The notes under the pieces were generated by a model. The model saw only the letters and a list, made by a program, of their open reading frames with translations, searched no databases and had not been told where the DNA came from. The position numbers and the translations under genes are program-made. A DNA stretch of 64,000 nucleotides from Candidatus Hydrothermarchaeum profundi (GTDB taxonomy: Archaea; Hydrothermarchaeota; Hydrothermarchaeia; Hydrothermarchaeales; Hydrothermarchaeaceae): positions 1,288,989 to 1,352,988 of the forward strand of contig MTMF02000009.1 of assembly GCA_002011125.2 (NCBI GenBank), in the 5' to 3' direction. Positions 645 to 16,032 of this stretch are shown piece by piece (position 1 is the first letter of the stretch; the number at the start of each line of letters is the position of its first letter).

Positions 645-785
645 CTCGTCAATCTCATATTTTCAGGAAAAATCAGTAGCAATTACCAAGACGCTTACAC
701 TAAATCTCAATTAATAAAAAGAAGCTAGGAAAACTATTGAATTACGATATTATTATATAAAAGGCTAGAGTAAGTTTGAGGCGTT

Positions 786-2045
786 ATGATATTGTCAAGA
801 CTATCTGAGTTGGGTGGTGATACGCTTTCACGTTTATTAAATAGATCGAAAGCTACTCAACGTAGAATTATAGCGGATGTCGAAAAGATAGTTGAAGATG
901 TAAAAAATAGGGGAGATGAAGCTTTAAGGTACTATACTCTGAAATATGATGGAGTAGAGTTAGATAACTTCCGTGTAACTGCGAACGAGTTTGAAGATGC
1001 TCTCTCAAGCGTGGGGGAAAATGTTTTAGAAGCCTTGCAGGTATCAGCCCATAATATTAAAGAGTTCCATGAATATCAATTAAGACGTGACTGGTTCTAT
1101 GAGAAAGATGGGATTAAGCTGGGTCAAATAGTCAGGCCAATAGGCAGAGTTGGTTGTTATATTCCAGGGGGTAGGGCAGCATATCCCTCGACGGTTTTGA
1201 TGACAGTGATACCGGCTAAGACGGCAGGCGTAAGGGAAGTAACTTGCATTACTCCACCAGGAAAAGGTGGAAGCGCTAACCCATATGTTCTCGCTGCTTG
1301 CCATGTGGCGGGGGTGGATGAAGTTTATAAAGTTGGTGGTGCGCAGGGCATAGCTGCATTAGCCTATGGAACAGAAAGCATTAGGAAGGTCGATAAGATA
1401 GTGGGTCCGGGCAACATATATGTTCAGGCTGCTAAGAGAATTGTTTCCGAGGATGTGGCAGCTGATTTTCCTGCGGGTCCGAGTGAAGTTCTAATTATAG
1501 CGGATTCAACGGCGAAGCCTTCTTTTGTAGCTTTGGATATGATTGCGCAGGCAGAGCACGATCCTAATGCGAGCAGTGTTCTTGTTACAACGTCTGAGAG
1601 GCTTGCAAAAGAGGTCAAAGACTTAATAGAAAGAGAGGATAAGACTGCTGAAGCATCTGCCTCCCTAAAGGAAAATGGAGCTATTATAATAGTTGATTCT
1701 TTAGAGGAAGCTGTAGAGTTTTCCAATACGTATTCACCTGAGCATCTTGAGATTATAACTCAAGTGGATGTTCTTTCGCAGATAACTAATGCAGGATCTA
1801 TCTTCATAGGCTCCTATACCCCTGTAGCCTGCGGAGACTATGCCTCCGGTACTAACCATGTCTTGCCAACGGCAGGCTATTCCAAGTTCTATTCGGGGTT
1901 GAGTGTTAATGACTTTATAAAAACTATTTCGGTTCAAGAAGTGAATAAGAAAGGCCTTAAAAAGCTGGCGCATACTATTATAACCCTTGCTGAAGCAGAA
2001 GGTTTAAGGTTTCATGCTGAAAGTGTTCGTAGGAGAATAAAATAA
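786..2045 (+). CDS. hisD: Histidinol dehydrogenase
   Basis: Motifs YIPGGRAAYPST, GPGNIYV, PAGPSE, AQAEHD, PEHL, GDYASGTNHVLPT. Confidence 0.97.
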   Translation: MILSRLSELGGDTLSRLLNRSKATQRRIIADVEKIVEDVKNRGDEALRYYTLKYDGVELDNFRVTANEFEDALSSVGENVLEALQVSAHNIKEFHEYQLRRDWFYEKDGIKLGQIVRPIGRVGCYIPGGRAAYPSTVLMTVIPAKTAGVREVTCITPPGKGGSANPYVLAACHVAGVDEVYKVGGAQGIAALAYGTESIRKVDKIVGPGNIYVQAAKRIVSEDVAADFPAGPSEVLIIADSTAKPSFVALDMIAQAEHDPNASSVLVTTSERLAKEVKDLIEREDKTAEASASLKENGAIIIVDSLEEAVEFSNTYSPEHLEIITQVDVLSQITNAGSIFIGSYTPVACGDYASGTNHVLPTAGYSKFYSGLSVNDFIKTISVQEVNKKGLKKLAHTIITLAEAEGLRFHAESVRRRIK

Positions 2046-2067
2046 GCATCTAATTCTTGGTGATAGG

Positions 2068-3375
2068 ATGGAGAGAAAGTATTCGGATGAGATAATCCCT
2101 GATATGGATGGACGGAAGGTCAAGATAGCGGGATGGGTGCATGATAGAAGAAAACTTGGCGGGCTTCTATTTCTCCTAGTGCGAGATAGAGGAGGACTTA
2201 TTCAAGTCACTCTTCCAAAAAAATATGTTTCTGAGGATGTGTTTGAAAAAGCCCGTACAGTTAGCAAAGAAAGTGTGGTGGCAATAGTAGGCGAGGTAAA
2301 GAAAGAAGAGCGGGCACCTCGGGGCTACGAGATCATACCTGAAAAGATAGATATCCTAAGCAAGGCAGCGGCACCTTTACCTCTTGACCCTACCGGAAAA
2401 GTCGGTGTAACCTTAGACACCAGGTTAGATAACAGGGTGCTAGATCTTCGTAGGCCAAATGTGAGTGCCATATTTAAGATAAGAGATGTCATGTTATCAG
2501 CGGCTAGAAATCACCTTAGAAGTAAGGGTTTTATCGAGATCCAAACACCGAGGATTATCTCTACTTCATCTGAAGGGGGTACCGAGCTGTTTCCAATAAG
2601 CTATTTCGAGAAGGAGGCTTTTCTTGCACAATCTCCACAGCTTTATAAGCAGATGATGATGGCTACAGGTTTAGATCGAGTATTTGAGATCGCAACTTAC
2701 TTCCGAGCAGAAGAGCATGACACGATTTGGCATCTAAATGAGATCACAGCTATAGACTGTGAGCTTTCTTTCATAGAGGATGAGAACGATGTTATGGATG
2801 TGGTTGAAGAACTGGTTCTTGCGATAATAAGGGATATAAGAGAGAATTGTAGTGAACACTTAGAAGGCTTTAACATTGAGATTAAAGAGCCTAAGACTCC
2901 ATTTCCAAGGATAACGTATGAAGAGGCCCTAGAAATGCTTGATGAGGCTGGTCTAAAGGTGCCTTTTGGCGAGGACTTGAGCACAGAGAGCGAGAAAAAG
3001 TTAGGTGAATTAATGTTGGAAAAAGGATGGTCGATGTATTTTGTTACAAAGTTCCCTCTTAGGATCAAGCCTTTCTATACAATGCCAGATAGAGATCCTC
3101 GATTCTCGAATTCTTTCGACCTAGAATTCAAGGGTAGAGAGATGGTTTCAGGTTCTCAACGAATCCATGATTATGATCTACTGGTTAAAATGATAAAAGA
3201 AAAGGGACTGAATCCGCAAGGATTTAAGACATATCTTGAAGCATTTAAATATGGCATGCCCCCGCATGGAGGCTTTGGCCTCGGAGTAGAGAGATTTCTA
3301 ATGCTCTTATTAGGCCTTCCTAACATAAGAGAGGCAGTGCTTTTCCCAAGGGACCGAAAAAGGCTAGAGCCCTGA
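2068..3375 (+). CDS. aspS: Aspartyl-tRNA synthetase, archaeal type, probably non-discriminating (Asp/Asn)
   Basis: OB-fold GWVHDRR, LAQSPQLYKQ, FRAE, motif 3 GMPPHGGFGLGVER; His in GWVH and Pro in ERAPRG are the non-discriminating signature residues. Confidence 0.95.
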   Translation: MERKYSDEIIPDMDGRKVKIAGWVHDRRKLGGLLFLLVRDRGGLIQVTLPKKYVSEDVFEKARTVSKESVVAIVGEVKKEERAPRGYEIIPEKIDILSKAAAPLPLDPTGKVGVTLDTRLDNRVLDLRRPNVSAIFKIRDVMLSAARNHLRSKGFIEIQTPRIISTSSEGGTELFPISYFEKEAFLAQSPQLYKQMMMATGLDRVFEIATYFRAEEHDTIWHLNEITAIDCELSFIEDENDVMDVVEELVLAIIRDIRENCSEHLEGFNIEIKEPKTPFPRITYEEALEMLDEAGLKVPFGEDLSTESEKKLGELMLEKGWSMYFVTKFPLRIKPFYTMPDRDPRFSNSFDLEFKGREMVSGSQRIHDYDLLVKMIKEKGLNPQGFKTYLEAFKYGMPPHGGFGLGVERFLMLLLGLPNIREAVLFPRDRKRLEP

Positions 3376-3689
3376 TTTCTCTATCTCAGTAATTCATAAA
3401 GCTCAAGCAATGATATAAATTAACTCTTTTGTTTAAATTTTGGAGGATAATCAACTTTAGGGAGTAAAACTACTTTTAATTAGATACCAATGTCACATTA
3501 ATATCGGCAGTTCTTGGCTCTATTCTAATATGACAGTAATCTTGCAAAACTTCTATAGAACCTATTATTATATCGGGGTCCAGGACATCTAATTAAATTG
3601 GTAGGTTAAAAAATGTTTAGCGTTTCTTTTCCCCGAATTGATCAAAAGTCTGGATTAAAGGCGTTCTGCTGTGATTTTGGTTAGTTTAT

Positions 3690-3703
3690 GATAGCCCCGG
3701 GCG
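3690..3703. repeat. Candidate distal att site (degenerate copy of tRNA-Thr 3' end)
   Basis: gatagccccgggcg vs gatagcccccggcg at 15498-15511, one mismatch; lies at the core/accessory boundary. Confidence 0.4.
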
Positions 3704-3923
3704 AACATCTCTTAGCCACATCAAAAGCCTATATCCTTCTTCGTTTTTCTAACATATAAATTTATTTTTAATACTTATTATATTTGGAGGTATCATAGTT
3801 AAGGAGAAAAGGTATAAAGTGAGCAGGCGAAGAAACTCATGAAGATTCCGAATAGAATAGCTGGAGACTAAATTTATAAACCGATTTTACAAATTTATTA
3901 CTTGAAAAACCTCCATAAGTATT

Positions 3924-3952
3924 TGTTCATGAACATTTTTTGTTTATGAACA
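3924..3952. promoter_or_regulatory. Tandem palindromic operator-like sites
   Basis: TGTTCATGAACA (perfect palindrome, 3924-3935) and TGTTTATGAACA (3941-3952), 17 bp apart, downstream of a TTTATAAA box. Confidence 0.5.
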
Positions 3953-4237
3953 AAACTATAGGGTCGTTTATTCTGCCGGAGGTTGACGCCTTATGAGAGG
4001 TTAGTTAAAGTTGAGTTCTCGCCTTTTAGCGGGTTTATCATCATGGCGGCGCTACTAAGAACATAGGGAAGGCTGCAAGACTCTAATATCTTTATCGCTT
4101 TAATACAAATGATATTCTTGGCAACCAGAAGGGTATCCCGTTCCTTATCGCTGAATTCCTGAGGGCAGGAAGAGCGAGCATGAGGGGTAGAAGGGGTTTA
4201 TATACCGTTTAGTACGAGTAATTTTTTATTCTAACCT

Positions 4238-4591
4238 TCACTCCCTCAATAAGTGAAGTGTCACCGGTCTATTGGAGTACGAAATGTAGGGGAGCTTGTT
4301 TAGAAGTGCCATAATTATAGCCTTCCTTCCGTGAAGCCTCGGTGCCAAGTCCTCCATATATAACTTTCCCTGAGATTCTAAGACTTCCCACGCGTATTCA
4401 AAATCTTCCTTGGAGATCTCCCTTTCAACTAATGTATCAATGTTTTGCACGGTGATGGATGTTTCAGTGACTTTTACTATTCTGTTGATGTTTCCCCTTG
4501 AAAGAGTCCTCACCTCATCCAGACCCTGAATTATGTCTCTCAGTTCCTCCCACATGTTTTCGAAGTTCTTGATTCCCTCTTTTCTAGACAT
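4238..4591 (-). CDS. Hypothetical protein, possible DNA-binding domain of the type fused to restriction nucleases
   Basis: Clean 117 aa ORF with AGGGAAG upstream; pattern RTL...IVKVT...ISKEDFEYAWEVL...IIMALLNKLPY. Confidence 0.55.
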   Translation of the reverse strand: MSRKEGIKNFENMWEELRDIIQGLDEVRTLSRGNINRIVKVTETSITVQNIDTLVEREISKEDFEYAWEVLESQGKLYMEDLAPRLHGRKAIIMALLNKLPYISYSNRPVTLHLLRE

Positions 4592-4707
4592 CTTCCCTTA
4601 ACATTGTTTCTATCCTAATTTTGTAATTATAACTATTCTAAGTTCCGGTGAATATCACTTTTTTCCACCACAAATACAACCTCATTTAATCCCGTATTCT
4701 CCATAAT

Positions 4708-5421
4708 TCACTGATGCGATTTATATTTTTTCGTTTTATCAATTATTCTAACTATTTTATGCTTATCCTCCTCTTGTATCTTGGAGCTATCAAGGTGCTG
4801 GTAGAGCCACAGTCCACTCGTCCTAATCCGCTTTACGGGGGAGTAATTTCCTAACCATTTTTCAGAGGGCTTGCATAAAGGACACTGGGCCAGTGTAGCG
4901 ATGAGTTTGCTCTCAAGTCCTTTCTCCCCAATCCTCGCTTCCATGTCCTCTAGGACTATATACTTGAAGAAGAAGTTCTCTCTGAGAATCCTGCTTATCT
5001 CCTCTTCAATCTCAACTTCCAGCCTCATGTTCCTCAAATGATGGTTCTCTTCCCTGTTTTTCCTACTGGTGAAGTCTATATCCCAGACATCCAAATAAGG
5101 TAAACCCCGTTTTTTCAAAATAGCTCTTCCCAAATTTTTTCTGAAAATGCTCCGATCCTTAGGAGCTGGTTTCATCGGGTCTAAAACAAGGTTTCTACCT
5201 AGTAGATAGTGGTCTGCTATCCTGCTCCTGAAATTCCCTTGCCTGTGGGTCCCAACACGCACAATCCTCGGTTTTTCACCCCCATGACCCCAGACCTCCC
5301 CATTCTCGTAGAAAAAGTATATGCCGTTTTTCGGCAGCTCTTCTAATCTAAAGGGATATCTCACGCTAGGCAAAGCCTCTAGTTGCTCGTGCAACCACCG
5401 GCATAGATCAGACTCTAACAT
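4708..5421 (-). CDS. GIY-YIG superfamily nuclease-like protein
   Basis: NGIYFFYE...RIVRVGTH...FRSRIADH matches the GIY-YIG core with its conserved Arg, plus a later conserved Glu helix (LESKLIA). Confidence 0.7.
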   Translation of the reverse strand: MLESDLCRWLHEQLEALPSVRYPFRLEELPKNGIYFFYENGEVWGHGGEKPRIVRVGTHRQGNFRSRIADHYLLGRNLVLDPMKPAPKDRSIFRKNLGRAILKKRGLPYLDVWDIDFTSRKNREENHHLRNMRLEVEIEEEISRILRENFFFKYIVLEDMEARIGEKGLESKLIATLAQCPLCKPSEKWLGNYSPVKRIRTSGLWLYQHLDSSKIQEEDKHKIVRIIDKTKKYKSHQ

Positions 5422-5425
5422 CCAT

Positions 5426-6256
5426 CTACCTCGGCAATCTGTATCTGATTCTTAGGGTAGCGCCTTTCCCACTTGAAGGGCTGTATAATATCTCATCACC
5501 AAGCCTCATCTCGCTGTACATCGTCTTACAGCACAAAGACATCCTATGATTTGGCCCCGGGTAACCCCCAACTATTCTATGAAGATCTCCGGAAATCACA
5601 TCCACCCATTTTTCCCCTCTTTTCTCTGCATCTTTAAGTACAGCTCGCAACGCAAACTCAAAATCTCTACTTGTAGGAAATCCCCGCTCAGTAGCTGGAC
5701 GCTTCAACCTACAGGGGGGCTCTCGTTGTTTTTCTCTCAGGCGACCATAAACATCGCCGAGCCTTGTATTAATCCCCGGAGACTCTAGATAGGTAGTTAT
5801 GCTAAAGGGACTATTGTTGTCTATAGCGCGTCTAACAGCCCTCATCATATAACCGATACCTCCTAATCCTTCAAAGGGTTTTATTACTAATGTCTGACTA
5901 TCTGAAAATGCCTGAGTTACAAGGTCAGCGTATTCCTTTCCCGCAAGGACGATTACAATGTCAAAGTTGTGAAGTTTCTTTTCCAATACTTGATTTTTAA
6001 GCTTCTCTATGCCTATAGGATTGGTTTTAGGGTCGCTGAAGGTCGCATTGTAATTCTCATGTATAACAAACTCTGGTTCTATAAACCCATACTTGGCGGA
6101 GAGTATCATCCACTTATCTCCGAACCTAATAGCGTACTCTTTATTCAGCCTAAAAAATATCCCCTGATAAGCATCTCCTGCCTTAGTTGGACCAGAATCT
6201 GGAGCTAGATCCCATATCTTTTTTGCCCCACAAGAGATAATAACTAGGGTCCTCAT
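5426..6256 (-). CDS. DUF6884-like domain fused to a small C-terminal domain
   Basis: LVIISCGAKK...A.DAY.G...WMILSAKYGFI signature; C-terminal SGDLHRIVGGYPGPNHRM.LCC domain; ends in TAG. Confidence 0.7.
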   Translation of the reverse strand: MRTLVIISCGAKKIWDLAPDSGPTKAGDAYQGIFFRLNKEYAIRFGDKWMILSAKYGFIEPEFVIHENYNATFSDPKTNPIGIEKLKNQVLEKKLHNFDIVIVLAGKEYADLVTQAFSDSQTLVIKPFEGLGGIGYMMRAVRRAIDNNSPFSITTYLESPGINTRLGDVYGRLREKQREPPCRLKRPATERGFPTSRDFEFALRAVLKDAEKRGEKWVDVISGDLHRIVGGYPGPNHRMSLCCKTMYSEMRLGDEILYSPSSGKGATLRIRYRLPR

Positions 6257-6378
6257 CCTCTTAATCTCCTTTTTGAAAAGCAGAGGTATTAAGGTTTTGT
6301 CAAGGCGATAGAGGGTCGCTGTACTGTCCGATACCAGCCTAGACGAACTAATTGTCCTCTCGATTATACATACAACGG

Positions 6379-7980
6379 TTAACCGGTCTCCATGTGAACA
6401 TGTTTTAGCTCTATCCTATCGATTGCCTTTTCTATAATATCCTTAAGATATAACCAATCGTCCTTCACACCAATAACTCTATCGTCCTTCTCTTTCTCTA
6501 ATAATTTTTTCAGAGGATCCAAAGCGCTTAGATGGCCAATTTTCCCCAACGCCTCGGCGGTTAAACCCCTGACAAGTTCGTCTGGATCGTTTATTTTCTG
6601 AATGAGAGTTGGAAGCCCGTTTTCAATTAATGATGGAGCATCTTGACAGATATTACCAAGAGCGTAAGCAGACCATGCTACCACGCCTCTATCGGTGCTC
6701 TTTAGAAGGCTAATAAGGGAAGGAACTGCATCTATTACTAATTTGGGGTCTTTCATTCCTATGCTTCCTATGGCATCGGCTGCCCAAGCTTTATTCTCTT
6801 CACTAGGGTCATCAAGCATTTCCATAATCTGCGGGATTGCTTCAGTAACAATATCTGGATAAACACTGCCTATCTCTCCCAATGCTCCTGCTATCCAGCC
6901 CCGGTTTTTCTCATCGGCTTCAGACAGCAATTTCATCAGTAATGGAGCTATTTCTCTCGCTAGGTCAGGATGGTTAGCTGCCATATCAGCAGAAATGTAT
7001 GTTGAATCCTCTGGAAAATCATGTAACGTCTTCCTCAAAAAAGGAATTGTTTCTTTTATAAGCTCAGGATCTTTACCCCCTATAGAGCTTAGAACTATGA
7101 TGGCCCCAGACCTAACATGAGCATCTTGGCTATTTAGCATCTCTTGCAGTTTGGGTATTGCGTCTTTCACCAAGCCGGGGTTCTTAGAGGCAACCTTAGC
7201 CAAAGCTTCAAGAATCAAAACGCGGTCAGCTTCTCTAGACTTTTCCAATAGTTCTATTATTTTAGGAACAGCATCTGCTATCCTTTCAGGATATTTCGCA
7301 CCTATATACCCCAAAGCACTAACAATAAAAGGGGTGACCCCTTTTTCCTCCCTCAGAAGCTGTTTTAGCGTTGGAGCAGCATCCTTAATCAGGTCTGGGT
7401 TACCCATACCAATGTCACTAAGAGCTTTTGGAAGAAGCCAAAAAAAGCTCGCTGATTCATCCTCTTCTAGATTTTTTATAAGCATTGGCACTAGATGGCT
7501 AACCATACAAGGGTTTCTTGAACCTATAACCCCGATGATCTCTATAATGTGGTTGACTATAAACCAATTCTCTTCACCTCTAGACTTGAGTAACTCAAAA
7601 TTATTCCACATCTCGTTGACCAGATCTCTCACAAATTCCTCTGAATTCCCTCTAGCTTCACCCAAAATTTCTCCAACATAGCTCCTTGTTTCGGCGTCTT
7701 GCTCAGGCAAGAAAGATACTAATGCTTCCACAATTACATCGCTTAATTCAGGATCTTTTTCTTTAATAACACCTAAGAGCTCAACTGAAACACCTTTCTT
7801 ATCTAAATGCGGAGTTGACATTAACGTAATCAGAGGTATTAAGGCGTTAAAGTCTCCTTTCATAATGTCTCTTTTATTTTTTTGTATATATCTGAAACCG
7901 TACTCAATTCCACCCTTTTTTAACCTCCATGCCTCTTTTCTAGCAGGCTTATTTTTTATTTCATATTTTTTCTTTGGCAA
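6379..7980 (-). CDS. HEAT-repeat protein
   Basis: About ten tandem repeats of type A..ALG.IG...P..V..A.P.L..LL; TTG start after GGAGGG. Confidence 0.85.
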   Translation of the reverse strand: MPKKKYEIKNKPARKEAWRLKKGGIEYGFRYIQKNKRDIMKGDFNALIPLITLMSTPHLDKKGVSVELLGVIKEKDPELSDVIVEALVSFLPEQDAETRSYVGEILGEARGNSEEFVRDLVNEMWNNFELLKSRGEENWFIVNHIIEIIGVIGSRNPCMVSHLVPMLIKNLEEDESASFFWLLPKALSDIGMGNPDLIKDAAPTLKQLLREEKGVTPFIVSALGYIGAKYPERIADAVPKIIELLEKSREADRVLILEALAKVASKNPGLVKDAIPKLQEMLNSQDAHVRSGAIIVLSSIGGKDPELIKETIPFLRKTLHDFPEDSTYISADMAANHPDLAREIAPLLMKLLSEADEKNRGWIAGALGEIGSVYPDIVTEAIPQIMEMLDDPSEENKAWAADAIGSIGMKDPKLVIDAVPSLISLLKSTDRGVVAWSAYALGNICQDAPSLIENGLPTLIQKINDPDELVRGLTAEALGKIGHLSALDPLKKLLEKEKDDRVIGVKDDWLYLKDIIEKAIDRIELKHVHMETG

Positions 7981-8048
7981 TTTCTTCCCTCCCTTTCTTC
8001 ATGCTACACTGTTATAATAATATACATAACTCTCTTTTTTAAATATGC

Positions 8049-8340
8049 ATTGAAAAAGATCTTGAGAGATTTATTGAAAAACCTCTCAGAAAAGGTTCTC
8101 TCAAGTTGAAAAAAAGACAGGCGCAGACAATTGATGGCGGTACGATTGACTTGCTTTTCGAAGATAAAGAAGGTAATCCCGTAGTTGTTGAGTTAAAACT
8201 TAGTAGAATTGGTAGAGGCGCAGTAAATCAATTGAAGCGGTACATGAAATGGGTGAGGGGTGAAACCAAAAAAAGAGGTTACCGGAGTTATTGTATGTAA
8301 AGGAGTAATGCCGGCGTTTGAGGAAAAGGTTCTACCTAGT
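8049..8340 (+). pseudogene. Fragment of a NucS/EndoMS-like (DUF91) PD-(D/E)XK domain, frameshifted
   Basis: IEKDLERFI...GTIDLLFEDKEGNPVVVELK...AVNQLKRY; removing one A from the A7 at 8268-8274 continues as KEVTGVIVCKGVMPAFEE; no proper start. Confidence 0.7.
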
Positions 8341-9135
8341 TTTCTTTACGAAGAATTCATCTATTCTTCTTTTGAGTTTTTCTTTATCTTTATATGGAAG
8401 ATATTCATTAGTCCATTTAGACTGTAAGTTTGCGTCAGTATTTTCATTCTTCCACTTGCCTAAGAAATTGTATCCATCCTCATTCGGGGAGTACACTACA
8501 CATAGAAAATTTATCGAGCTATATTTCTTATTACTTAAACAAACGTTGAACGCTTTTCTTAAAGACGCTATAGAATTCTTTGCTTTGAGGCGGCTTTTAT
8601 AGCTTGAACTCTCTGCCTTAGCCTTAACTGGCTTATCAGTATAATAAATCAGCATCCATTTTTCCCTACCCCCCCTTTCTAGAAGTTTTTCGCAGTCATC
8701 CTCCAGGCATTTTTCAAGACTTTTCGTTGTGTTTCCAAAACCTTTTCGGGTCTTAAATTCCAAGGCTATTAAAGGATCTAAGAATTTCTTCTTCTCTTCA
8801 CTTTCATGGGATTTCTTGATATCAAATTTATCAACTTCCTTGAACCGACTTGGGTCGAGAATCACCACGTCGATTCTAATATTTTCGCCTACTCCATACT
8901 CTTGGTGCAAGACGATGTTTCTAAAAATTCTATTTCCACTGTTATCGGTATATCCTGTTTCGTATGCTTCAAAGAAATTTTTATCCACTTCAATTAAGTA
9001 ATGGCAAAATATCCAATGGAAATCTTTTTCTGAGAAAAATATCATTGGGTCATCTACAAATTTTAGGGTCAATTTTTTTTTACAGCCAAGCTGCATTTTT
9101 TGATCATTTCTTCTGATATAAAGCCTCTCATTCAT
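8332..9135 (-). CDS. PD-(D/E)XK nuclease-like protein
   Basis: FFSEKDF...LHQEY...RIDVVILDP...IALEFK motifs; start refined to the ATG at 9135 just after the upstream stop; A9 tract near the 5' end; ends in TAG. Confidence 0.6.
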   Translation of the reverse strand: MNERLYIRRNDQKMQLGCKKKLTLKFVDDPMIFFSEKDFHWIFCHYLIEVDKNFFEAYETGYTDNSGNRIFRNIVLHQEYGVGENIRIDVVILDPSRFKEVDKFDIKKSHESEEKKKFLDPLIALEFKTRKGFGNTTKSLEKCLEDDCEKLLERGGREKWMLIYYTDKPVKAKAESSSYKSRLKAKNSIASLRKAFNVCLSNKKYSSINFLCVVYSPNEDGYNFLGKWKNENTDANLQSKWTNEYLPYKDKEKLKRRIDEFFVKKTR

Positions 9136-9136
9136 A

Positions 9137-10471
9137 TCACAAAGAAAACTTCTTTTCAAATTCTGGTAAGATGACTTTTGAACCTACTCCTTTAAATAAC
9201 TCCGGCTCTTCTGTGTGAACCGGGAACACTTTTTTAGGATTAATCTCGTTTACAACGTCAAAGATCTCCTCCTTGGAGCAGTGCCCGCTCGCATGGGCCT
9301 GATGCCTCTTCATAGCGAAGCGCCTGCACCAGTTAGACTTCACCCTGTCCTCGGGGTCCTCGTCCTCGAAGGGCTCGCTCATAGAGTGTATGAAATGCGC
9401 CCCAGGCTCTGGCTGTATGTCGATGAGCTCGGTAAAATGCGTGAAGTCCAGGTGGAGTATCAGCTCCGGCTGATGCCTGTGGACATACTCGGCGTCCACC
9501 GCCTCTTCAAGGAACTTCTCCTCCCACCTGCTGTACCTGTTCATCATCCTCTTGTAGACGAGCATGTGCTCATCTCTCAAGGGGTCCGGCACCTCTATCC
9601 CCGGGTCGTCCAGCAGGCTGCAGAGGAGGTGGGCCACCTTAGTCGAAACAACAAGCCTCCGGCCAGTCTTCTCTGCGAGCCCGTGATACGTCTTAATCCT
9701 GTCGATGTCCTTCGGGTAGAAGCAGGTGACCACCAGCCTGTCTGTACCTGATATCACGTCGTAGCAGTACTCCCATACCTCTTGCTCTGTGAAGTTCTTC
9801 CTCTTCTCAACCCTGGCTACCCGGGTTCCCTCGCATATCATGGCGATGGGCCGCTCCTCCTTCGCCTTGTCTATGAAGTCCCGGGTCATCCTCGCCATGG
9901 GGCCATGCATCCTGAAGTCGCCAGTGTAGACGACGGGGCCCTCGGAGGCGTATATGACGAAGCCATAGGCCGAGGGCGTAGAGTGGTCGACGTGTATAGG
10001 GTATACCTCTATGTCGTCGATCTTGATGCAGTCCCCCGTCTTAAAGGTCTTGTAGTCATGTGGCCCGAAGTTGACTGACGTGCTCGTGGTCTCCCAGGAC
10101 TCGATTATCCTCTTCGCCGTCGCCCCAAGGTAGACGGGTATGTCCTCGTCAACGTATGAGATATGAGAGACGTGGTCTCCATGGGGGTGAGACAGGAATA
10201 CTCCCTGGAACTCTGGCTCGGAATAATTAAGATTTGTGGGCTCCAGCATCCTCCTAGAGTAGAGCCCCCTTATCTCTGGCATTAGGCCGAGGGCGAACAG
10301 GTCTCTTAACCCGAACCTAGAAGTCCTCGGGGTCAGCCAGCCCGTGAAGTACTCGCCTCCGAAGCCGAAGGCTTCGCCGTGGTCGAGGAATATCTTGGTG
10401 TCACCGTCCTCTAGGAGGAACTTGTTACCCCCTATCTCGCCCACCCCGCCATAGAAGGTGAGTGACACCAT
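9137..10471 (-). CDS. RNase J-like metallo-beta-lactamase/beta-CASP hydrolase
   Basis: LTFYGGVGEIGGNK, SHPHGDH, VDHS, YTGDFR, HASGH, PVHTE; start refined to MVSLTF. Confidence 0.9.
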   Translation of the reverse strand: MVSLTFYGGVGEIGGNKFLLEDGDTKIFLDHGEAFGFGGEYFTGWLTPRTSRFGLRDLFALGLMPEIRGLYSRRMLEPTNLNYSEPEFQGVFLSHPHGDHVSHISYVDEDIPVYLGATAKRIIESWETTSTSVNFGPHDYKTFKTGDCIKIDDIEVYPIHVDHSTPSAYGFVIYASEGPVVYTGDFRMHGPMARMTRDFIDKAKEERPIAMICEGTRVARVEKRKNFTEQEVWEYCYDVISGTDRLVVTCFYPKDIDRIKTYHGLAEKTGRRLVVSTKVAHLLCSLLDDPGIEVPDPLRDEHMLVYKRMMNRYSRWEEKFLEEAVDAEYVHRHQPELILHLDFTHFTELIDIQPEPGAHFIHSMSEPFEDEDPEDRVKSNWCRRFAMKRHQAHASGHCSKEEIFDVVNEINPKKVFPVHTEEPELFKGVGSKVILPEFEKKFSL

Positions 10472-10701
10472 ACAAGAACAGGTAGAGTTCATAGTATTTT
10501 ATTTTTATGAGGATATGGCGCAGACTAAGAAATAAAGCTTGACTTTTACTTTGCTCTTGGCAAAAAGATAAATACCCGTAGGCTCTAGGATCCTTTATAG
10601 GAGTACCTTAGCTAACCTTCCCGTAGAACATGGGTGTCAGGTCCCTCGCTGTTAAGGGGGAATTGTAAGAGGAAGGCATATCGGAGGAGGCGTCTAAAAA
10701 A

Positions 10702-11166
10702 ATGATGAGGTACTGGCAGGTTTCCGCTGGAGACGGGGGAAGAGACTATACAGACGTATTCTTAAAATACGGGGTAATGCTTCTTGCTCCAGGCGACTCG
10801 GGGGAATACTTCCAGAATCGAGAGCATTATTATAGTGATGTAAGGGCGCTTGCGGAGGAGGTTAAAGAGGGCGATATCGTTGTATTAAAGAGGCGTCATG
10901 GGAGGCTGTGGAAAGCGGTGGCTATAGGCACTGTTATAGGGGAATACGACTACCTACCTGTCTTCGAGGATGTTGACGGATGGGATATGCAGCACTGTAG
11001 ACATGTTGAATGGAGAAGGCCCAGACACCCGGTTACGGTTAGTGGCTTAGCAAGAGGCGCGTTTAAAGAGATTAAAAGACCGGACGTGATAGAGAAGGTT
11101 GACAGGCTGATGAGATCAGAGGCCCTAGAGACTCTTATGCGAGAGCCTATACCTGAGAGACTTTAG
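10702..11166 (+). CDS. PUA/EVE-like domain of the type found N-terminal in McrB/Mrr proteins, probably truncated
   Basis: YWQVSAG...VKEGDIVVL...AIGTVIGEYDY...RHVEW; ends at TAG TAG followed by non-coding AT-rich DNA. Confidence 0.55.
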   Translation: MMRYWQVSAGDGGRDYTDVFLKYGVMLLAPGDSGEYFQNREHYYSDVRALAEEVKEGDIVVLKRRHGRLWKAVAIGTVIGEYDYLPVFEDVDGWDMQHCRHVEWRRPRHPVTVSGLARGAFKEIKRPDVIEKVDRLMRSEALETLMREPIPERL

Positions 11167-11365
11167 TAGCATGAGTTTGAAGGATCTTTTTTAGAGAATA
11201 CTATTTCCTCCAACTCCTTCTTAACACTCTTAATTCTTACATAAAATCGAATATTTTAAACTGCTAAGAGTTTTTTCCTAATGATTAAACAATGTCATAG
11301 CAAAATTTTTTATTTTTGAGAAAGTTTATTAAAAAATACTTAAATTACTATTATTAGTACTCTGA

Positions 11366-11381
11366 CCGAAAAGTTTATATA
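11366..11381 (+). promoter_or_regulatory. Archaeal BRE-TATA promoter of the 11439-13660 operon
   Basis: CCGAAAAG-TTTATATA; GAGGTGA SD at 11425-11431. Confidence 0.7.
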
Positions 11382-11438
11382 TATCAATTGCTCATACAAT
11401 TTTATAAAGATGCTTTATCAAAAAGAGGTGATAAAAAA

Positions 11439-11915
11439 ATGAAACTGAATCCTATTACTTCTAGAGTTAGGAGATGGGGGAACATGTTAGTGCTACCTAT
11501 CCCAGAGCCTGTGGCAGAGCTTTTAGGAATTGAGGAGGGGGATCAAGTCAAGTTTTTCCCCGAAAAAGTAGAGCCACAGAAAAGTCTGCCGCCTTTAGAG
11601 GTCAGAGATAAAACAGGAGAAGAAATAAAGATAGAATTAACGGAGGCTGCTATCAAATGGCCTCATCTCCCTCTGAAAAAGGACATTAGGAGCTTATTCC
11701 CTGATGACAGCGTGGACTTTTTTTTGGAGTTTGAGGGCGTGGTAGAGAGAGTGCACGTTGCCGCTAATAAGATAGCGATAGGTAAATTCAAAAACCTGCT
11801 TAAGAGCCACAATTTTCGGCCTAAGAGTAAAGTGATTATAAGAGTGGTTAAACCATGGGAGGAATACAAGCTGGTCTTCCCAGAAAAAATAGTATCGCAA
11901 GGGGAGAATGAATGA
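11439..11915 (+). CDS. AbrB/MazE-type DNA-binding domain fused to a B3-like beta domain
   Basis: SRVRRWGNMLVLPIPEPVAELLGIEEGDQV is a typical AbrB/MazE motif; start refined to the ATG after GAGGTGA. Confidence 0.75.
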   Translation: MKLNPITSRVRRWGNMLVLPIPEPVAELLGIEEGDQVKFFPEKVEPQKSLPPLEVRDKTGEEIKIELTEAAIKWPHLPLKKDIRSLFPDDSVDFFLEFEGVVERVHVAANKIAIGKFKNLLKSHNFRPKSKVIIRVVKPWEEYKLVFPEKIVSQGENE

Positions 11916-13453
11916 TCGATATAATCCCTAGGCTTAAGACCTTGTGGCTTAACCGTGTTGGCTGCATTGAGGAAGCCTCTATAAGGTTCAATAGCCGTGT
12001 GAATGTTATATGTGGCCCAGACGCTTCCGGGAAGACAACATTTGTTAGGTCGATCCTATCTGTTCTCGGCGAGGATAGAGGCTCGCTGAGCGCATCACGT
12101 GGGAGAGGTAGGAAGGGGTGTATAAGGCTGGAGGCAGATTCGTTTTCAGTGGAAGGAGTCTTCACTGAGGCGGGTTTACTTGTAGGCTGGGAGAAAGGGA
12201 GAAGGGATGCCGTGGGTGGAGCATTGTTGATAGATGACGCTGATCTCATGTTCAAGGATCCACGGGCGGTATGGGAGCTGGGTGAGGCGCTTGGCATGCA
12301 GGTCATCATGACGGCTGGCGATCAGAGGTTCGCAGGGATACCCGGGGCGAGGGTGTTCAGATTAGAGAGGAGCCCTGAGACGGGGCTTAGCAGGGTGAAC
12401 CATCCATCGAATAATGCGGTAGGGAGAATGTGCTACCGCTATGTTCCCCTTACGGTGGATAGGCGCGTCAATGAGGCCCGTATACATAGGTTTGCTGAAA
12501 AATGGGCTGCCGGGGATACGGTGTTCTCTAGGCGTTTCATAATCTTTAAGCGCCATGGCCTGGAGTATCGCTTCGGGGTGGAGGAGGCATGTCTGGCTGA
12601 TTACTTGGACATGGGGCGCCGCCATAGGGGTGACTTGGGGCTGCATTTCTTCAGGTGCCTCTGCATCCATCTCCCAGCAGGCGTCTATAGGCTTTGGCTT
12701 GGGCTGTTTAAATGCAACCTAGAGATCAAGGACGAGGACCACGGGAGGACATGGATACTAGGTGGAGTGGACTTAAGGGGCCTTGAGGTATGGTATGTCC
12801 TTAGAGAGAGTTATAGATTCGAGGATGGTGAGCGCTTCATCGAGTTCGTTAAGGAGGTCAGGAAGAAGCCTGAGGTGGCTCGAAGGGCCCGGGAGATACT
12901 TAAGGCAATGGATAGAGGGATAGGCCTGCCCTTGGGTAGGCGTGTGCGGCTTCAAGTCAGAGCAATGCTTGAGGGGGGCATCTGGCGTCTTGTGCCCTAT
13001 AATTTCGAGGGCGATGCGGTAACGCTGGAGGGCGGCCTAGGGGATCTTCTCATGTTGATTGACACGGCGCAAAGAGGCAGGGAAGCTTTTTCAATGCTTA
13101 GAAGACTTGTTCCCGGTGTGGTTCTGGAGGAGTGGACGCATAGGTGTCTGGAGGTTGAGGAGGAGGCTTGGAAGCTGGTGGAGGAGCTTCAGCTGGCCTA
13201 CAGCAGTAGGATAAGTCGGTATGCAGACATGGGCAGGCGTGGCTTCTTGGTCGAAGGCGAGAGTGGGAGGACGTATTTCGTGGACGAGGACTCCCTCGGG
13301 GTCTATGTCTACCCCGGGTTCCGTGAGGTCTGCGTCCAAGACGTGGAGGAGCAGGTGATGCCCTGGGGAGATAGGATCGCCTCTAGGATCCTTCTCTTGA
13401 TGAATGACTTGAAGCTGGGATCGAGTGTGCATACGCTCTTTGAAAGGAGGTGA
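11912..13453 (+). CDS. Minimal ABC/SMC-type ATPase domain fused to an uncharacterised region of about 340 aa
   Basis: Walker A GPDASGKT, Walker B LLIDD, QVIMT; C-terminal FLVEGESGRTY...EVCVQD...GDRIASRILLLMND; possible internal start at 12428 after GGGAGA. Confidence 0.6.
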   Translation: MIDIIPRLKTLWLNRVGCIEEASIRFNSRVNVICGPDASGKTTFVRSILSVLGEDRGSLSASRGRGRKGCIRLEADSFSVEGVFTEAGLLVGWEKGRRDAVGGALLIDDADLMFKDPRAVWELGEALGMQVIMTAGDQRFAGIPGARVFRLERSPETGLSRVNHPSNNAVGRMCYRYVPLTVDRRVNEARIHRFAEKWAAGDTVFSRRFIIFKRHGLEYRFGVEEACLADYLDMGRRHRGDLGLHFFRCLCIHLPAGVYRLWLGLFKCNLEIKDEDHGRTWILGGVDLRGLEVWYVLRESYRFEDGERFIEFVKEVRKKPEVARRAREILKAMDRGIGLPLGRRVRLQVRAMLEGGIWRLVPYNFEGDAVTLEGGLGDLLMLIDTAQRGREAFSMLRRLVPGVVLEEWTHRCLEVEEEAWKLVEELQLAYSSRISRYADMGRRGFLVEGESGRTYFVDEDSLGVYVYPGFREVCVQDVEEQVMPWGDRIASRILLLMNDLKLGSSVHTLFERR

Positions 13454-13660
13454 ATGAGGATGGTGAAGGTTAAGATATTGGATGGCAGGGGGCATGCCCT
13501 GCTTGAGCTGGGCCCTGAGGAGGCCCTGCATGAGCTTAAGGCCCGGGAGGGCAGATGGGTCTTTGTGGACGGTGAATACACGCCATGCAGGGAGCTCTCT
13601 GTAGAGCGCCTTAGAGGCGCCCTTGAGGTGGTGGTCACCTATCCGCTTCAGGGAGGATAA
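13454..13660 (+). CDS. Ubiquitin-like (beta-grasp/SAMP-like) small protein
   Basis: 68 aa, N-terminal beta hairpin, WVFVDG strand, terminal VVVTYPLQGG-stop; SD GGAGGTGA overlaps the upstream stop. Confidence 0.75.
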   Translation: MRMVKVKILDGRGHALLELGPEEALHELKAREGRWVFVDGEYTPCRELSVERLRGALEVVVTYPLQGG

Positions 13661-13713
13661 AAAATATCAACTGGAGGAGAACGAGCCGCTGGACTCCCTT
13701 GATGAAAATTAGC

Positions 13714-13742
13714 GAGCGGGGGATGCTCCACTGCCCCCGCTT
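13714..13742 (+). terminator. GC-rich hairpin downstream of the ubiquitin-like gene
   Basis: GAGCGGGGG-N11-CCCCCGCTT inverted repeat. Confidence 0.35.
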
Positions 13743-13850
13743 CTCCTTAGGTCCATACAACTACTTATTTGGACTTTTAAGTGTTCTACATCCCTTTCAG
13801 CTAAAAAATAAGAAACGTTATGTGAGGTTCTTGAATTCTTGGTATAGGAG

Positions 13851-14573
13851 GTGAAGGATATGGAAATAGAACATAGTTTGGACGACAATACCCAAATAAA
13901 ATATGGGTTACTTACATGGAAAAAACAGGAAGACGACAAATATAGACAAGTCCTACCTGACGGCGAATTTACAATAGACTTTCTCGGCAAGAAGATCCCA
14001 AGCCGCAGGGTAGATTGGGAGAGGCACAGATTGTCAATCGGTCCAAAGAATATGGAAGGGTTAAAGCCGGAGGATAAACTTCTTATTTCCAGAACGCCTG
14101 ATGGCACTGTGATTATAAAGAAAAAAAAGGAAAAATCATTACCTAAAAAAGTTCTTTTTGTTACCTATTGTAGCAGAAAAAAGAGGACTTATCCTGAGAG
14201 ATATGCTCCCGCGATAAATAGATACGACTCCCTGAGGATTGAAAGAGTCTATGAGGAAAGCCTTAAGAGAGGGAAGGATTTCGCAATTTTATCTGGCAAG
14301 TACGGTTTGATTAGAGCGCACACTATGATTCGTTGGTATGATAAGAAACTAGAAGATAAGGATATAAATCGGGTTTCAGAATTGGTTAAGGATTTCTTAA
14401 GGAGAGAAAGAATAGAAAAGGTTGTTTATTACACCGAGCCACTAAACGAGGATGAAAACCTAAGGCATTATTATAAGTGCATTAGGAAGGCGTGTAAAGA
14501 ACTTGACATATCATTCCAAGAAGTAGAGATACCTAGATTACCTGTAGAACCGGAGAATCAAGGAACTTTGTAA
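13851..14573 (+). CDS. B3-like N-terminal domain fused to a DUF6884-like domain
   Basis: VLFVTYCSRKK...PAINRYDS...FAILSGKYGLI...WYDKKL signature shared with 5426..6256; GGAGGTGA SD. Confidence 0.7.
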   Translation: MKDMEIEHSLDDNTQIKYGLLTWKKQEDDKYRQVLPDGEFTIDFLGKKIPSRRVDWERHRLSIGPKNMEGLKPEDKLLISRTPDGTVIIKKKKEKSLPKKVLFVTYCSRKKRTYPERYAPAINRYDSLRIERVYEESLKRGKDFAILSGKYGLIRAHTMIRWYDKKLEDKDINRVSELVKDFLRRERIEKVVYYTEPLNEDENLRHYYKCIRKACKELDISFQEVEIPRLPVEPENQGTL

Positions 14574-14673
14574 CATGATCCAAATCCGTGGATAAATGAT
14601 TAAAAAACCTAACGCTTATTGATATCTTGCGACGAAATTACCTGAAAGATAAACGCAGACCTTCTCCTATATA

Positions 14674-15441
14674 TTATTTTCCCGCCTTCTTTGCTAGCTC
14701 ACGGAGAAGCCTGCAGGTGAATCCATAGGACAAGTGATTGTTCTTCCACTTCGGGTTATTCGGCGATGGGATCTTACACCAGACAAAGCTATCAGGGTCC
14801 TCCTTACGTGGATGCTCCTCAATCCAACGCTGCAAAGCCAGGCTAGAGGCTACCAGCCTTACACGCCTGTCACCCGTCTTACCGCTGACCCTCAGCACGG
14901 CCCCATACCTGTCAAAGACTACATGCCTAAGCCTAAGTGGAAGAAACTCCCCGATCCGACAACCAGACTCATAGAGAGCCAGCACCAGGGCCCTATCACG
15001 AGTAGTATAGGCAGCCTTTGATAGCTTTTTTACCTCCTCCTCAGTAAGGATCTCTTGCGGAAATCGGCCGTTCTTAACGCTCTTTACCTTAAGCCAGCTG
15101 ATGGCCTCTCTCTTCCCTATGAAACGCATGTACTTCCTCAGGACAACCTTGTAGTCATGCTTGGTCCAGTTGCTATAGTTGGACTTCTCTATCTCAGCCA
15201 CTAGAGCCTTAATGTCTTTTTCTTCCGCGTTCAGGAAAGGCTTGCCAATCATTCTGTTAAGCACCTGCAAGGTTGCTAGGTATTTAACCACCCTTCCAGC
15301 GCTAATTCCATTAGCTACAGCGTCCTGATAGAACCTTCTTAGATCCTCTAGGTCTTCATCGAAGAACCTCCCCCCTTCGGATAGGTATTTCTCTGCGCTC
15401 CTCTCTAAAGTCTTTTTCAAGTTATGTATGTCCTCGGCCAT
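14674..15441 (-). pseudogene. Tyrosine recombinase/integrase, C-terminally truncated
   Basis: RDRALVLALYESGCRIGE and GKTGDR present; ORF stops at LAKKAGK before the HxxRH box and catalytic Tyr; no continuation seen in other frames. Confidence 0.85.
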
Positions 15442-15500
15442 ATCTCAAACCTCCAAATTCAATGCTAATAAATGCTAAGGCTCAAGACGTGGCCAAGGAT

Positions 15501-15574
15501 AGCCCCCGGCGGGATTTGAACCCGCGACCTGCGGTTTACGAGACCGCCGCTCTGGCCAGCTGAGCTACGGAGGC
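15501..15574 (-). tRNA. tRNA-Thr(CGT)
   Basis: GCCTCCG/CGGGGGC acceptor stem, GCGGT-CTCGTAA-ACCGC anticodon arm, GGTTCAAATCC T arm; CCA not encoded. Confidence 0.95.
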
Positions 15575-15618
15575 ATTTCTTTTATTTATAGGAAGTGATT
15601 TCAATAAAAAAATTAGGG

Positions 15619-16032
15619 TTATATGATTTCTATCCTCATCTCGAGCTTCTGATTATCCTTCTTTAAAAGCTCTACTAATCTCCTATCTAACTCCGCTGAG
15701 CTCTTGTTTGCTTTTATCATGAGGGTCCTAGGGCAGATAAATTTACTTTTCCTAACTACGATATCAGTCTCATGGGAAAATGTAAGTTCTGGATGCCCTC
15801 TTCCATAAATGGTCTCTTGAAGACCACCTACATTCAATATAACTTTAATAACGCTGTTTTTATCCCTTGCCCTCTTCTTGAATTCCTCGCTGAGGTCTTT
15901 TAAGCCTTTATTTGCTTTTACTCCTATTATACAGTCAGCTCTCTTAGAGATCTCGCTGTCTTTTGTTATCTCAAAGGTTGTCTTATGTTTAGAGGTGATA
16001 TTTGGGTGTCCTCTTGCTATGATTGTTTCCAT
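15619..16032 (-). CDS. DUF371 family protein
   Basis: ARGHPNI...HKTTFEITKD...DCIIGV...VRKS.FICPRTL. Confidence 0.9.
   Translation of the reverse strand: METIIARGHPNITSKHKTTFEITKDSEISKRADCIIGVKANKGLKDLSEEFKKRARDKNSVIKVILNVGGLQETIYGRGHPELTFSHETDIVVRKSKFICPRTLMIKANKSSAELDRRLVELLKKDNQKLEMRIEII

Follow-up and report, generated by a model that had tools for sequence, protein, structure and literature searches.

An archaeal ubiquitin-like protein paired with a candidate E2-like carrier in a Candidatus Hydrothermarchaeum profundi island, and a likely undescribed Ubl-E2-E1 cassette in its relatives

So far, ubiquitin-type conjugation in prokaryotes has been described for a few bacterial defence operons (Bil, Bub, and CBASS Cap2) and for eukaryote-like operons in a small number of archaea; the other known form is sampylation, which has no E2. 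SAMP/UbaA sampylation and the ThiS/MoaD carriers work without an E2-fold partner, and the ubiquitin (Ub) operons of Caldiarchaeum and Asgard archaea encode canonical UBC E2s, large E1s, RING E3s, and Rpn11. Here, we analyzed a 64,000-nucleotide (nt) stretch of contig MTMF02000009.1 of Candidatus Hydrothermarchaeum profundi (the window), in which three plus-strand genes for an AbrB-type regulator, a 513-amino-acid (aa) protein, and a 66- or 68-aa ubiquitin-like protein (Ubl) lie beside a truncated integrase gene and a tRNA-Thr gene. The balance of the evidence moderately favored the idea that the two downstream proteins are a genuine pair, a Ubl and its E2-like carrier, and that they belong to a rare, mobile archaeal Ubl-E2-E1 cassette without a JAB peptidase. 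We based this idea on the order and conservation of the genes, on fold matches at the scores given below, and on a predicted interface between the two proteins.

In the accessible text of the papers that describe them, the Bil (BilABCD), Bub, and type 6a to 6e operons also combine a Ubl with a ThiF-type E1 and an E2-fold protein and are also sparse and mobile (10.1101/2024.11.21.623953, PMC10557695, PMC1779556). The loci studied here were archaeal, however, and contained no JAB or other peptidase, whereas the bacterial Ubl operon types 6a to 6e all include a JAB in the accessible part of the 2006 Iyer-Burroughs-Aravind survey (PMC1779556). In comparison with Bil and Bub, the E1 of the related loci was a single 182- to 187-aa domain rather than an IAD-AAD-CYS protein, and the E2-like domain appeared to be of the DUF7737 lineage and stood at the end of a 510- to 540-aa protein. 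It carried a Cys where Bub has a Ser. According to the accessible text of the Bub paper, the helix pair at the C-terminal end of UBC is missing from the E2s of Bub and Cap2 (10.1101/2024.11.21.623953), and it was also missing from the Cys domain of the window protein. In contrast to the E2-E1 fusions of CBASS Cap2 and 6A-MBL cap2_3, the genes were separate, a free Ubl took the place of the CD-NTase C-terminus, and neither a JAB nor a cyclase was present. The Ubl resembled the SAMP and ThiS/MoaD proteins in that it is predicted to be a small beta-grasp protein with a terminal Gly-Gly and in that its relatives have a ThiF-family enzyme in their loci, but here an E2-like protein was its constant neighbor. 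A combination of Ubl, E1, and E2 in archaea is also found in the Caldiarchaeum and Asgard operons, and Caldiarchaeum Ub was among the structural matches of the Ubl; unlike those operons, our loci had no canonical UBC E2, large E1, RING E3, or Rpn11. With regard to known defence systems, the sole PADLOC matches of the large protein covered its P-loop end. The literature that we searched contained no description of an archaeal Ubl-E2-E1 triad (related operons may be listed in the supplementary tables that accompany the Bil and Bub reports), and the cassette looks undescribed so far. A full-text search found no publication on DUF7737, and the DUF4132 literature that we found had no Ubl topic in its titles or abstract openings.

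The last 100 or so residues of the 513-aa protein provided the evidence for an E2-like carrier. When residues 164 to 513 were used in a phmmer search of 1.84 billion representatives, 34 proteins were found at E ≤ 1e-3, and their common part was the last ~100 residues. The residues G444, Y455, C474, D487, D499, and L509 were invariant across the 34-sequence alignment, and the EVCVQD Cys motif and ...GDRIASRILLLMND were both present in the tail of the window protein. AlphaFold2 (AF2) modeled residues 180 to 510 with a predicted local distance difference test (pLDDT) value of ~90. In this model, the domain had a helix at 402-429; strands at 434-439, 442-448, 454-458, and 464-467; a short strand at 471-473; Cys474; a loop; and helices at 485-497 and 499-505. 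The resulting order, a1-b1-b2-b3-b4-Cys loop-a2 with Cys474 between b4 and a2, is what we take to be the order of the UBC core. An exhaustive VIA-align comparison of residues 413 to 513 matched the UEV domains of Vps23 and Tsg101 (5.4 and 5.1), Ubc9 (5.0), and the Cap2 E2 domain (4.3), and further matches included RWD domains, E2S, and many other E2s; the Bub E2 (9eav_D) was a joint-best fold match. An initial annotation of this DNA had stated that the Ubl had no E2 partner, a statement that these results did not support in that form, as the best fold matches of the adjacent Cys domain were E2, UEV, and RWD domains.

The same annotation had noted a likeness between this tail and the C-terminus of DUF4132-type (YehI-type) proteins, and the likeness proved to be real. 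An hhalign comparison of the archaeal domain alignment with the C-terminus of a DUF4132+DUF7737 protein gave a probability of 96.3% and an E value of 1.5e-9; both the Cys and the SRILLLxND helix were aligned. The target was a single Verrucomicrobial protein with both domains (E 1.7e-27) that was found by the family pattern, and the family occurred in 1 of 61 Verrucomicrobiia genomes. Nine of 33 relatives matched DUF7737 with 17 to 23 bits, which is below the cut-off, and structural neighbors in the ESM Atlas included DUF4132/DUF7737 clusters with template modeling (TM) scores of 0.58 to 0.61. Judged by sequence, the Cys domain is a distant homolog of DUF7737, not a member by the Pfam rule. It is homologous to the C-terminal domain of the bacterial DUF4132/DUF7737 proteins; the window protein has no DUF4132 domain.

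Some other occurrences of the domain were recorded. The ESM Atlas neighbors of residues 400 to 513 included a 53-member cluster, 75% of it viral (Uroviricota), with a TM score of 0.70 by query, along with two clusters from Thermoplasmatota at TM 0.74 and 0.68; a search of the same atlas by features gave no usable match. A 959-aa DUF5724/DUF4132/DUF7737 protein of Verrucomicrobiia (L012:2379-5258) ended in the same Cys-containing C-terminal domain, and at this locus, the one bacterial locus inspected, the surrounding open reading frames (ORFs) showed no sign of a Ubl or ThiF gene. In addition, a 719-aa relative (P0023, P0061, and P0062) shared the C-terminal domain alone and formed an 18-member cluster from Candidatus Methanoperedens contigs of 64 to 156 kb.

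The small protein had the properties expected of a Ubl. Its AF2 model (pLDDT 91.6) showed the beta-grasp order, and the Foldseek rows included ubiquitin, NEDD8, SUMO, ISG15, Caldiarchaeum ubiquitin, and Mth1743, with probabilities of 0.85 to 1.0, E values of 2e-3 or worse, and TM scores of ~0.45 to 0.5. MoaD, TtuB, SAMP1, CysO, and BilA were further fold matches. At the sequence level, the protein belonged to no Pfam or NCBIfam family (the sole Pfam row was Lambda_tail_I at E 0.17), and its profile gave chance-level rows alone against the sequences of the PDB. A profile built from five Ubls, however, found 26 relatives at E ≤ 0.01. Twenty-four of the 27 aligned rows were complete and 3 were truncated or frameshifted; among the complete rows, the exact [A/G]G terminus was present in 20 and followed by one or two extra residues in 4. 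The window protein kept the family residues G13, W35, and G40 and the terminal GG. Accordingly, the initial proposal of a Ubl whose diglycine is already mature held up, and two of the findings that had been named as speaking against it, a fold other than beta-grasp and an unconserved GG, were checked and came out in favor of a Ubl. As a separate observation, three Thermoplasmatota relatives ended in AG followed by LV.

We also used a complex prediction to examine how the two proteins might fit together. Residues 180 to 513 of the large protein (alignment A1) and the Ubl (alignment A6) were run along with three controls. The pair scored 0.75, compared to 0.00 for the best of the controls, and the runs had a contact agreement of at least 92% and a partner pLDDT of at least 85. 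The predicted interface involved helix 415-430 and residues 474-478 and 481-508 of the large protein and, on the Ubl, the sheet face (7-14, 35-44, and 58-62) and the tail (62-68). Low-error residue pairs included 475:65 and 476:65, with the Ubl tail lying along the Cys474 loop. Docking of the GG tail at the EVC Cys had been proposed as a check at the outset, and this check was positive. Given the invariant Cys, the E2-like fold matches, and the predicted interface, the Cys tail is a likely acceptor of the Ubl, as first suggested.

To place the pair in a family, we read six loci, namely, the window and five distinct relatives: L003, L004 (the same as L009 and L013), L011 (the same as L014), L021, and L010. 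A narrower alignment (A3) supplied search patterns for related loci; these patterns fit neither the window protein nor P0003, its full-length relative, so the search of genome and metagenome contigs covered other subtypes. In all five related loci, a homolog of the large protein was followed by a 64- to 71-aa Ubl homolog and then by a 182- to 187-aa ThiF-family gene, which we refer to as the mini-E1. Only in L021 did another ORF, 75 aa long and Cys rich, intervene before the ThiF gene. The mini-E1s matched PF00899 with 46.0 and 50.5 bits (cut-off 28.1; E 4.8e-12 and 1.9e-13) and shared GxGGxG, D36, K57, T92-D93 (TD(N/D)), and R98 with the host E1. A Cys in the motif SCQ was invariant in all four mini-E1s compared. 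The nearest solved relatives by sequence were MccB and Cap2, and the best NCBIfam rows were PRTRC_ThiF and ThiF, of which PRTRC_ThiF was nearest and far below its cut-off. Because a dedicated mini ThiF-type E1 directly follows the Ubl in 5/5 related loci, the family seems to be E1 dependent rather than E1 free. Hence, the initial statement that there was no E1 was correct for the window locus and for its genome, which lacks a mini-E1, but not for the family.

The accessory genes of the cassette were less constant. The regulator was of the AbrB type in the window, a divergent HFX_2341/Csa3-like gene in L013 and L011, and a weak TrmB-like winged helix-turn-helix gene directly upstream in L021. 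A JAB was found neither in the window region nor in the five related loci, as judged from the ORFs that were read and from Pfam scans of some of them. The host genome has a single canonical ThiF-family gene (271-aa frame; G000:C9:583430-584134) ~0.7 Mb from the window locus and a Prok-JAB gene ~0.43 Mb from it. In L010, which is from Aenigmatarchaeota, the cassette (89-3307) was decaying: the E2-like gene was intact, the Ubl was truncated before its C-terminus, the mini-E1 was frameshifted, and an intact tyrosine recombinase gene came next. Integrases adjoin the pair both there and in the window. The domain was found in 3 of 38 Hydrothermarchaeota genomes, the window genome included, and in 3 of 371 Aenigmatarchaeota genomes. 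None of the 83 and none of the 8 pattern matches in viral contigs was confirmed, PLSDB plasmids (query P0023) and phage records (query P0005) gave no match, and when the proteins were used one at a time in word-indexed homolog searches, nothing came up beyond the proteins of the window itself. The intervening ORF of L021 (1003-1230, minus strand) had a CxxC and further Cys residues and no Pfam match; from its sequence, it could be a small Zn-ribbon accessory protein.

Unlike the conserved C-terminal domain, the front of the 513-aa protein is shared with one relative. The initial annotation had described a short ABC/SMC-type ATPase there, in agreement with an AAA_23 match above the Pfam cut-off (32.8 bits versus 27) that covered residues 13 to 66 alone. 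Weak matches to ASRP, RecF, PtuA, MADS3, and LmuB were likewise confined to the first ~90 residues, and beyond the P-loop end the protein had no Pfam, NCBIfam, or PADLOC match. The Walker A motif was GPDASGKT, and the Walker B-like LLIDD had an Asp at the position expected for the catalytic Glu. No signature motif was seen, and the AF2 model was unreliable in this module (pLDDT below 50). The single relative with the full architecture, P0003, was 29% identical to the window protein (E 7e-44). As P0003 shares the full length at only this level of identity, the P-loop architecture must have been kept through a long divergence. Neither of the two proteins has the catalytic Glu of Walker B (LLIDDA in the window protein; ILIDTPE, with Thr, in P0003), and the earlier idea that the protein's own ATPase activates the Ubl was not supported. 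The phmmer alignments to P0003-P0007 ran through the middle region, for which structure searches gave no convincing fold match. A Foldseek search of the PDB with the model of the large protein found nothing at E ≤ 0.001; chains of Mediator and phytochrome ranked highest, with probabilities of 0.15 or less.

From these results, we infer a simple pathway for the complete cassette, which would consist of a regulator, an E2-like protein, a Ubl, and a mini-E1, in that order. The 182- to 187-aa ThiF-type enzyme would adenylate the Ubl at its exposed C-terminal Gly. The Ubl would then pass, directly or via the invariant Cys of the E1, to the DUF7737-type domain, where it would form a thioester with the invariant Cys, and from there onto a target that might be selected by the N-terminal and middle parts of the E2-like protein, both of which are variable. 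A JAB would be unnecessary because the Ubl is made in mature form. The window copy would be a derivative in which a degenerate SMC/ABC-like P-loop domain has replaced the usual N-terminal module, an AbrB-type regulator is translationally coupled upstream, and the E1 gene is absent. Since the E1 gene is absent, the window pair presumably is either no longer active or dependent on the one canonical E1 of the ThiF/UbaA type that the host has; if the two proteins are indeed such a pair, we consider host-E1 use and a relic roughly even. A role in mobile-element conflict or maintenance would fit the rare, patchy, and integrase-adjoining distribution and the deviant G+C content.

Several points weigh against a Ubl/E2-like pair in an E1-dependent cassette. 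The loci inspected were six only. The window locus has no E1, and a mini-E1 query found nothing in the window genome at E ≤ 10. In the mini-E1s, the Arg found in the NLNRQ motif of the host E1 is missing, and the segment reads NLLYS or NLLWQ. The profile of the Cys domain had 0 matches to PDB sequences at E ≤ 10, and the window protein did not match Pfam DUF7737 (PF24879, cut-off 27 bits) even at E ≤ 1. An HPN motif upstream of the Cys, which is a feature of canonical E2s, was absent; the family has Y-P ~6 to 8 residues before the Cys (VYxYPxGxYVC). Noncanonical prokaryotic E2s also lack the HPN motif, according to the accessible text of the 2006 survey (PMC1779556). As for the complex, the 0.75 mark was reached by 58 of the 80 solved complexes and by 2 of the 110 mismatched pairs used for calibration, counts that are a rough guide because we supplied our own alignments, and the high score may partly reflect the prediction program's memory of solved E2~Ub complexes.

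The most serious rival concerns this locus and overlaps with the family-level idea: it is possible, if somewhat unlikely, that the window copy is an inert relic whose E1 was lost as the island decayed and whose frames remain open because the loss was recent. The absence of the family-specific E1 from locus and genome, the truncated integrase with no att repeat found, and the decay of the sister locus L010, with its truncated Ubl and frameshifted E1, all fit a relic. However, both window ORFs were intact; the E2-like domain retained each of its six family-invariant residues, and the Ubl retained G13, W35, G40, and the terminal GG; and the Shine-Dalgarno sites and translational coupling were preserved. 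The P-loop architecture shared with P0003 has likewise been kept over a long divergence, and the host's canonical E1 could act in trans. A sulfur relay seems unlikely to us. In such a relay, the Ubl would be a sulfur carrier of the ThiS/MoaD type and would become thiocarboxylated once the ThiF-like enzyme had adenylated it, and the large protein would use Cys474 to pass the sulfur to a cofactor, tRNA, or metabolite. MoaD, TtuB, and CysO are among the closest Ubl folds, the adjoining enzyme of the relatives is of the ThiF family with PRTRC_ThiF and ThiF as its best NCBIfam rows, and no JAB or E3 is present. In addition, the initial annotation had named a Ubl found beside sulfur-transfer (MoaE/ThiF) genes as a finding that would count against conjugation. 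Adjacency to ThiF was formally observed, but MoaE, ThiG, ThiH, CysM, TtuA, rhodanese, and other sulfur-pathway genes were not seen among the ORFs read in the six loci (some of which were Pfam scanned). Furthermore, the fold matches of the Cys domain were E2, UEV, and RWD domains rather than sulfurtransferases, the distribution was very rare, patchy, and integrase linked, and the N-terminal modules were variable, none of which suits a sulfur relay.

The remaining two alternatives change the role of the large protein. That its C-terminal domain is a noncatalytic Ubl binder of the UEV/RWD type, which would make the protein a reader, scaffold, or target rather than a carrier, is very unlikely in our judgment. 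UEV and RWD domains did score as high as true E2s and the HPN motif was missing, but the Cys, placed between b4 and a2, showed no variation across 34 sequences, and the predicted interface puts the Ubl tail at residues 474 to 478. We give the least credence to a self-sufficient, E1-free system in which the fused P-loop domain replaces the ThiF-type E1 and activates the Ubl with ATP. The P-loop module and the missing E1 coincide in the window, and the architecture is conserved in P0003. Against this stand the lack of the catalytic Glu in both members and of a signature motif, as well as the resemblance of the module, over its first ~90 residues alone, to defence sensor ATPases (PtuA, MADS3, and LmuB); moreover, we know of no P-loop NTPase that activates a protein C-terminus.

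If the Ubl/E2-like carrier pair is genuine, the cassette would represent a new lineage of prokaryotic ubiquitin-type conjugation, and a very compact one, and its simplicity would make it suitable for studying the minimum machinery that Ubl transfer requires. DUF7737, and hence the C-terminus of the bacterial DUF4132 proteins, would gain a testable function, and the widespread DUF4132 proteins would end in an E2-like domain if the E2-like assignment holds. The E1-less window copy poses the question of whether a mobile E2/Ubl pair is able to use a host UbaA-type enzyme. A far-reaching combination of these ideas is that DUF7737 is an unrecognized clade of E2s, the cassette is the smallest complete ubiquitin-type system, the window module is E1 free or parasitizes the host E1, and the bacterial DUF4132/DUF7737 proteins are cryptic Ubl- or acyl-carrying enzymes. 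We regard this combination as improbable. Under it, the smallest system would comprise a 64- to 70-aa Ubl, a 182- to 187-aa E1, and an E2 with a built-in substrate module, with no protease, and the window would show a case, on a mobile island, in which the dedicated E1 was given up and a fused P-loop NTPase gates or powers Ubl loading.

Table 1. Positions of the features described in the text (window coordinates unless a locus is named)
Feature	Position	Strand	Remarks
BRE/TATA-like promoter element AAAGTTTATATA	11370..11381	+	58 nt upstream of AbrB start
AbrB/SpoVT-type regulator gene	11439..11915	+	158 aa; N-terminal swapped-hairpin domain, residues 10-40; PF04014
SMC/RecF/ABC-like P-loop module of the 513-aa protein	11912..12400	+	Walker A G35-T42; Walker B-like LLIDD 105-109
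Middle alpha/beta region of the 513-aa protein	12449..13147	+	Residues ~180-412; pLDDT ~90; conserved with E1-linked relatives
E2/UBC-like C-terminal domain, putative distant DUF7737 homolog	13148..13453	+	Residues 413-513; Cys474 codon 13331-13333
ThiS/MoaD-like beta-grasp Ubl	13454..13660	+	68 aa, or 66 aa from ATG 13460; ends QGG
Truncated XerA-like tyrosine recombinase	14674..15441	-	255 aa, without last ~55 model positions; island edge
tRNA-Thr (CGT)	15501..15574	-	ARAGORN; adjoins integrase fragment
Mini-E1 genes	L004:565-1125, L011:2177-2737, L003:706-1266, L021:445-978

The coordinates of the ORFs agreed with the three-gene operon that was first proposed (Table 1). The AbrB domain matched its Pfam family with E 9.9e-8 and 32.3 bits (cut-off 24.7), and no domain was assigned to the ~110 residues at the C-terminal end of the regulator. 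The likely start of the AbrB gene has GAGGTGA 8 nt before the ATG, and its TGA at 11913-11915 overlaps, as ATGA, the ATG at 11912-11914 of the 513-aa gene (11912-13453). The latter ends in a TGA at 13451-13453, which the small ORF, with its C-terminal VVVTYPLQGG-stop, directly abuts. Each of the three genes is preceded by a purine-rich ribosome-binding site. For the small gene, the distance from GGAGG at 13446-13450 suits the second ATG better than the first; the 66-aa product would begin with MVKVKIL, which is also the start of the stored gene call P0002 and the N-terminus of most relatives of the small protein. The promoter-like element (B recognition element/TATA type) AAAGTTTATATA had one match in the window versus 0.12 expected, and at least one match occurred in 11 of 100 shuffles; its uniqueness lends weak support because the pattern was picked after the site had been seen.

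The G+C content was 54.5% in the large gene and 58.5% in the Ubl gene, compared to 39.7% in the remaining window, which bore out the earlier remark that the two downstream genes are G+C rich; the AbrB gene had 43.0%. A contig from an independent run covered positions 11458-14090 with 0 differences, and the gene order, including the sequence after the small gene, is therefore real and no assembly artifact. No E1 remnant was found downstream of the Ubl, where a 51-aa ORF (13699-13851) gave no alignment to the mini-E1 at E ≤ 100.

The recombinase matched PF00589 (E 4.3e-9) and, over model positions 2 to 208 of 263, NF040815. The tRNA-Thr gene next to it is likely a former integration site, and beyond it lie ordinary genes (DUF371 and PCMT). 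The truncated integrase, the tRNA-Thr, the G+C-rich genes, and the ordinary genes past the tRNA indicated that the operon sits in a decayed, foreign, tRNA-adjacent island, and the mobile setting first proposed can be specified in this way. Because no direct repeat of the 3' end of the tRNA-Thr was found within 3000-16000, the left end of the island is undefined. An SSV-type split integrase was considered and dropped, as no C-terminal half was nearby.

Other genes near the operon were also recorded. A G+C-rich gene for a beta-CASP/RNase J-like metallo-beta-lactamase (9137-10492, minus strand) had a GC3 of 0.74 and a second genomic copy that was 42% identical, and close orthologs (59 to 65% identity) occurred in just two other genomes of the phylum. 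A functional tie between the pair and this gene, by analogy with 6A-MBL, was dropped since the gene is absent from the triad-bearing Hydrothermarchaeota genomes G012 and G022. Upstream of the operon, 10702-11166 (plus strand, G+C content of 49%) encodes a protein of 154 aa that matched nothing in Pfam or NCBIfam and had a partial match to the PADLOC candidate defence family PDC-S02 (E 4.5e-8, residues 38-110). Downstream of the Ubl, 13851-14573 (plus strand) encodes a 240-aa protein with a weak AbrB-like segment (residues 68-95) and matches to DUF6884 (E 5.7e-6, below the cut-off) and PADLOC PDC-M57A (E 6.5e-5). Unlike the operon, this gene had a low G+C content (38%).

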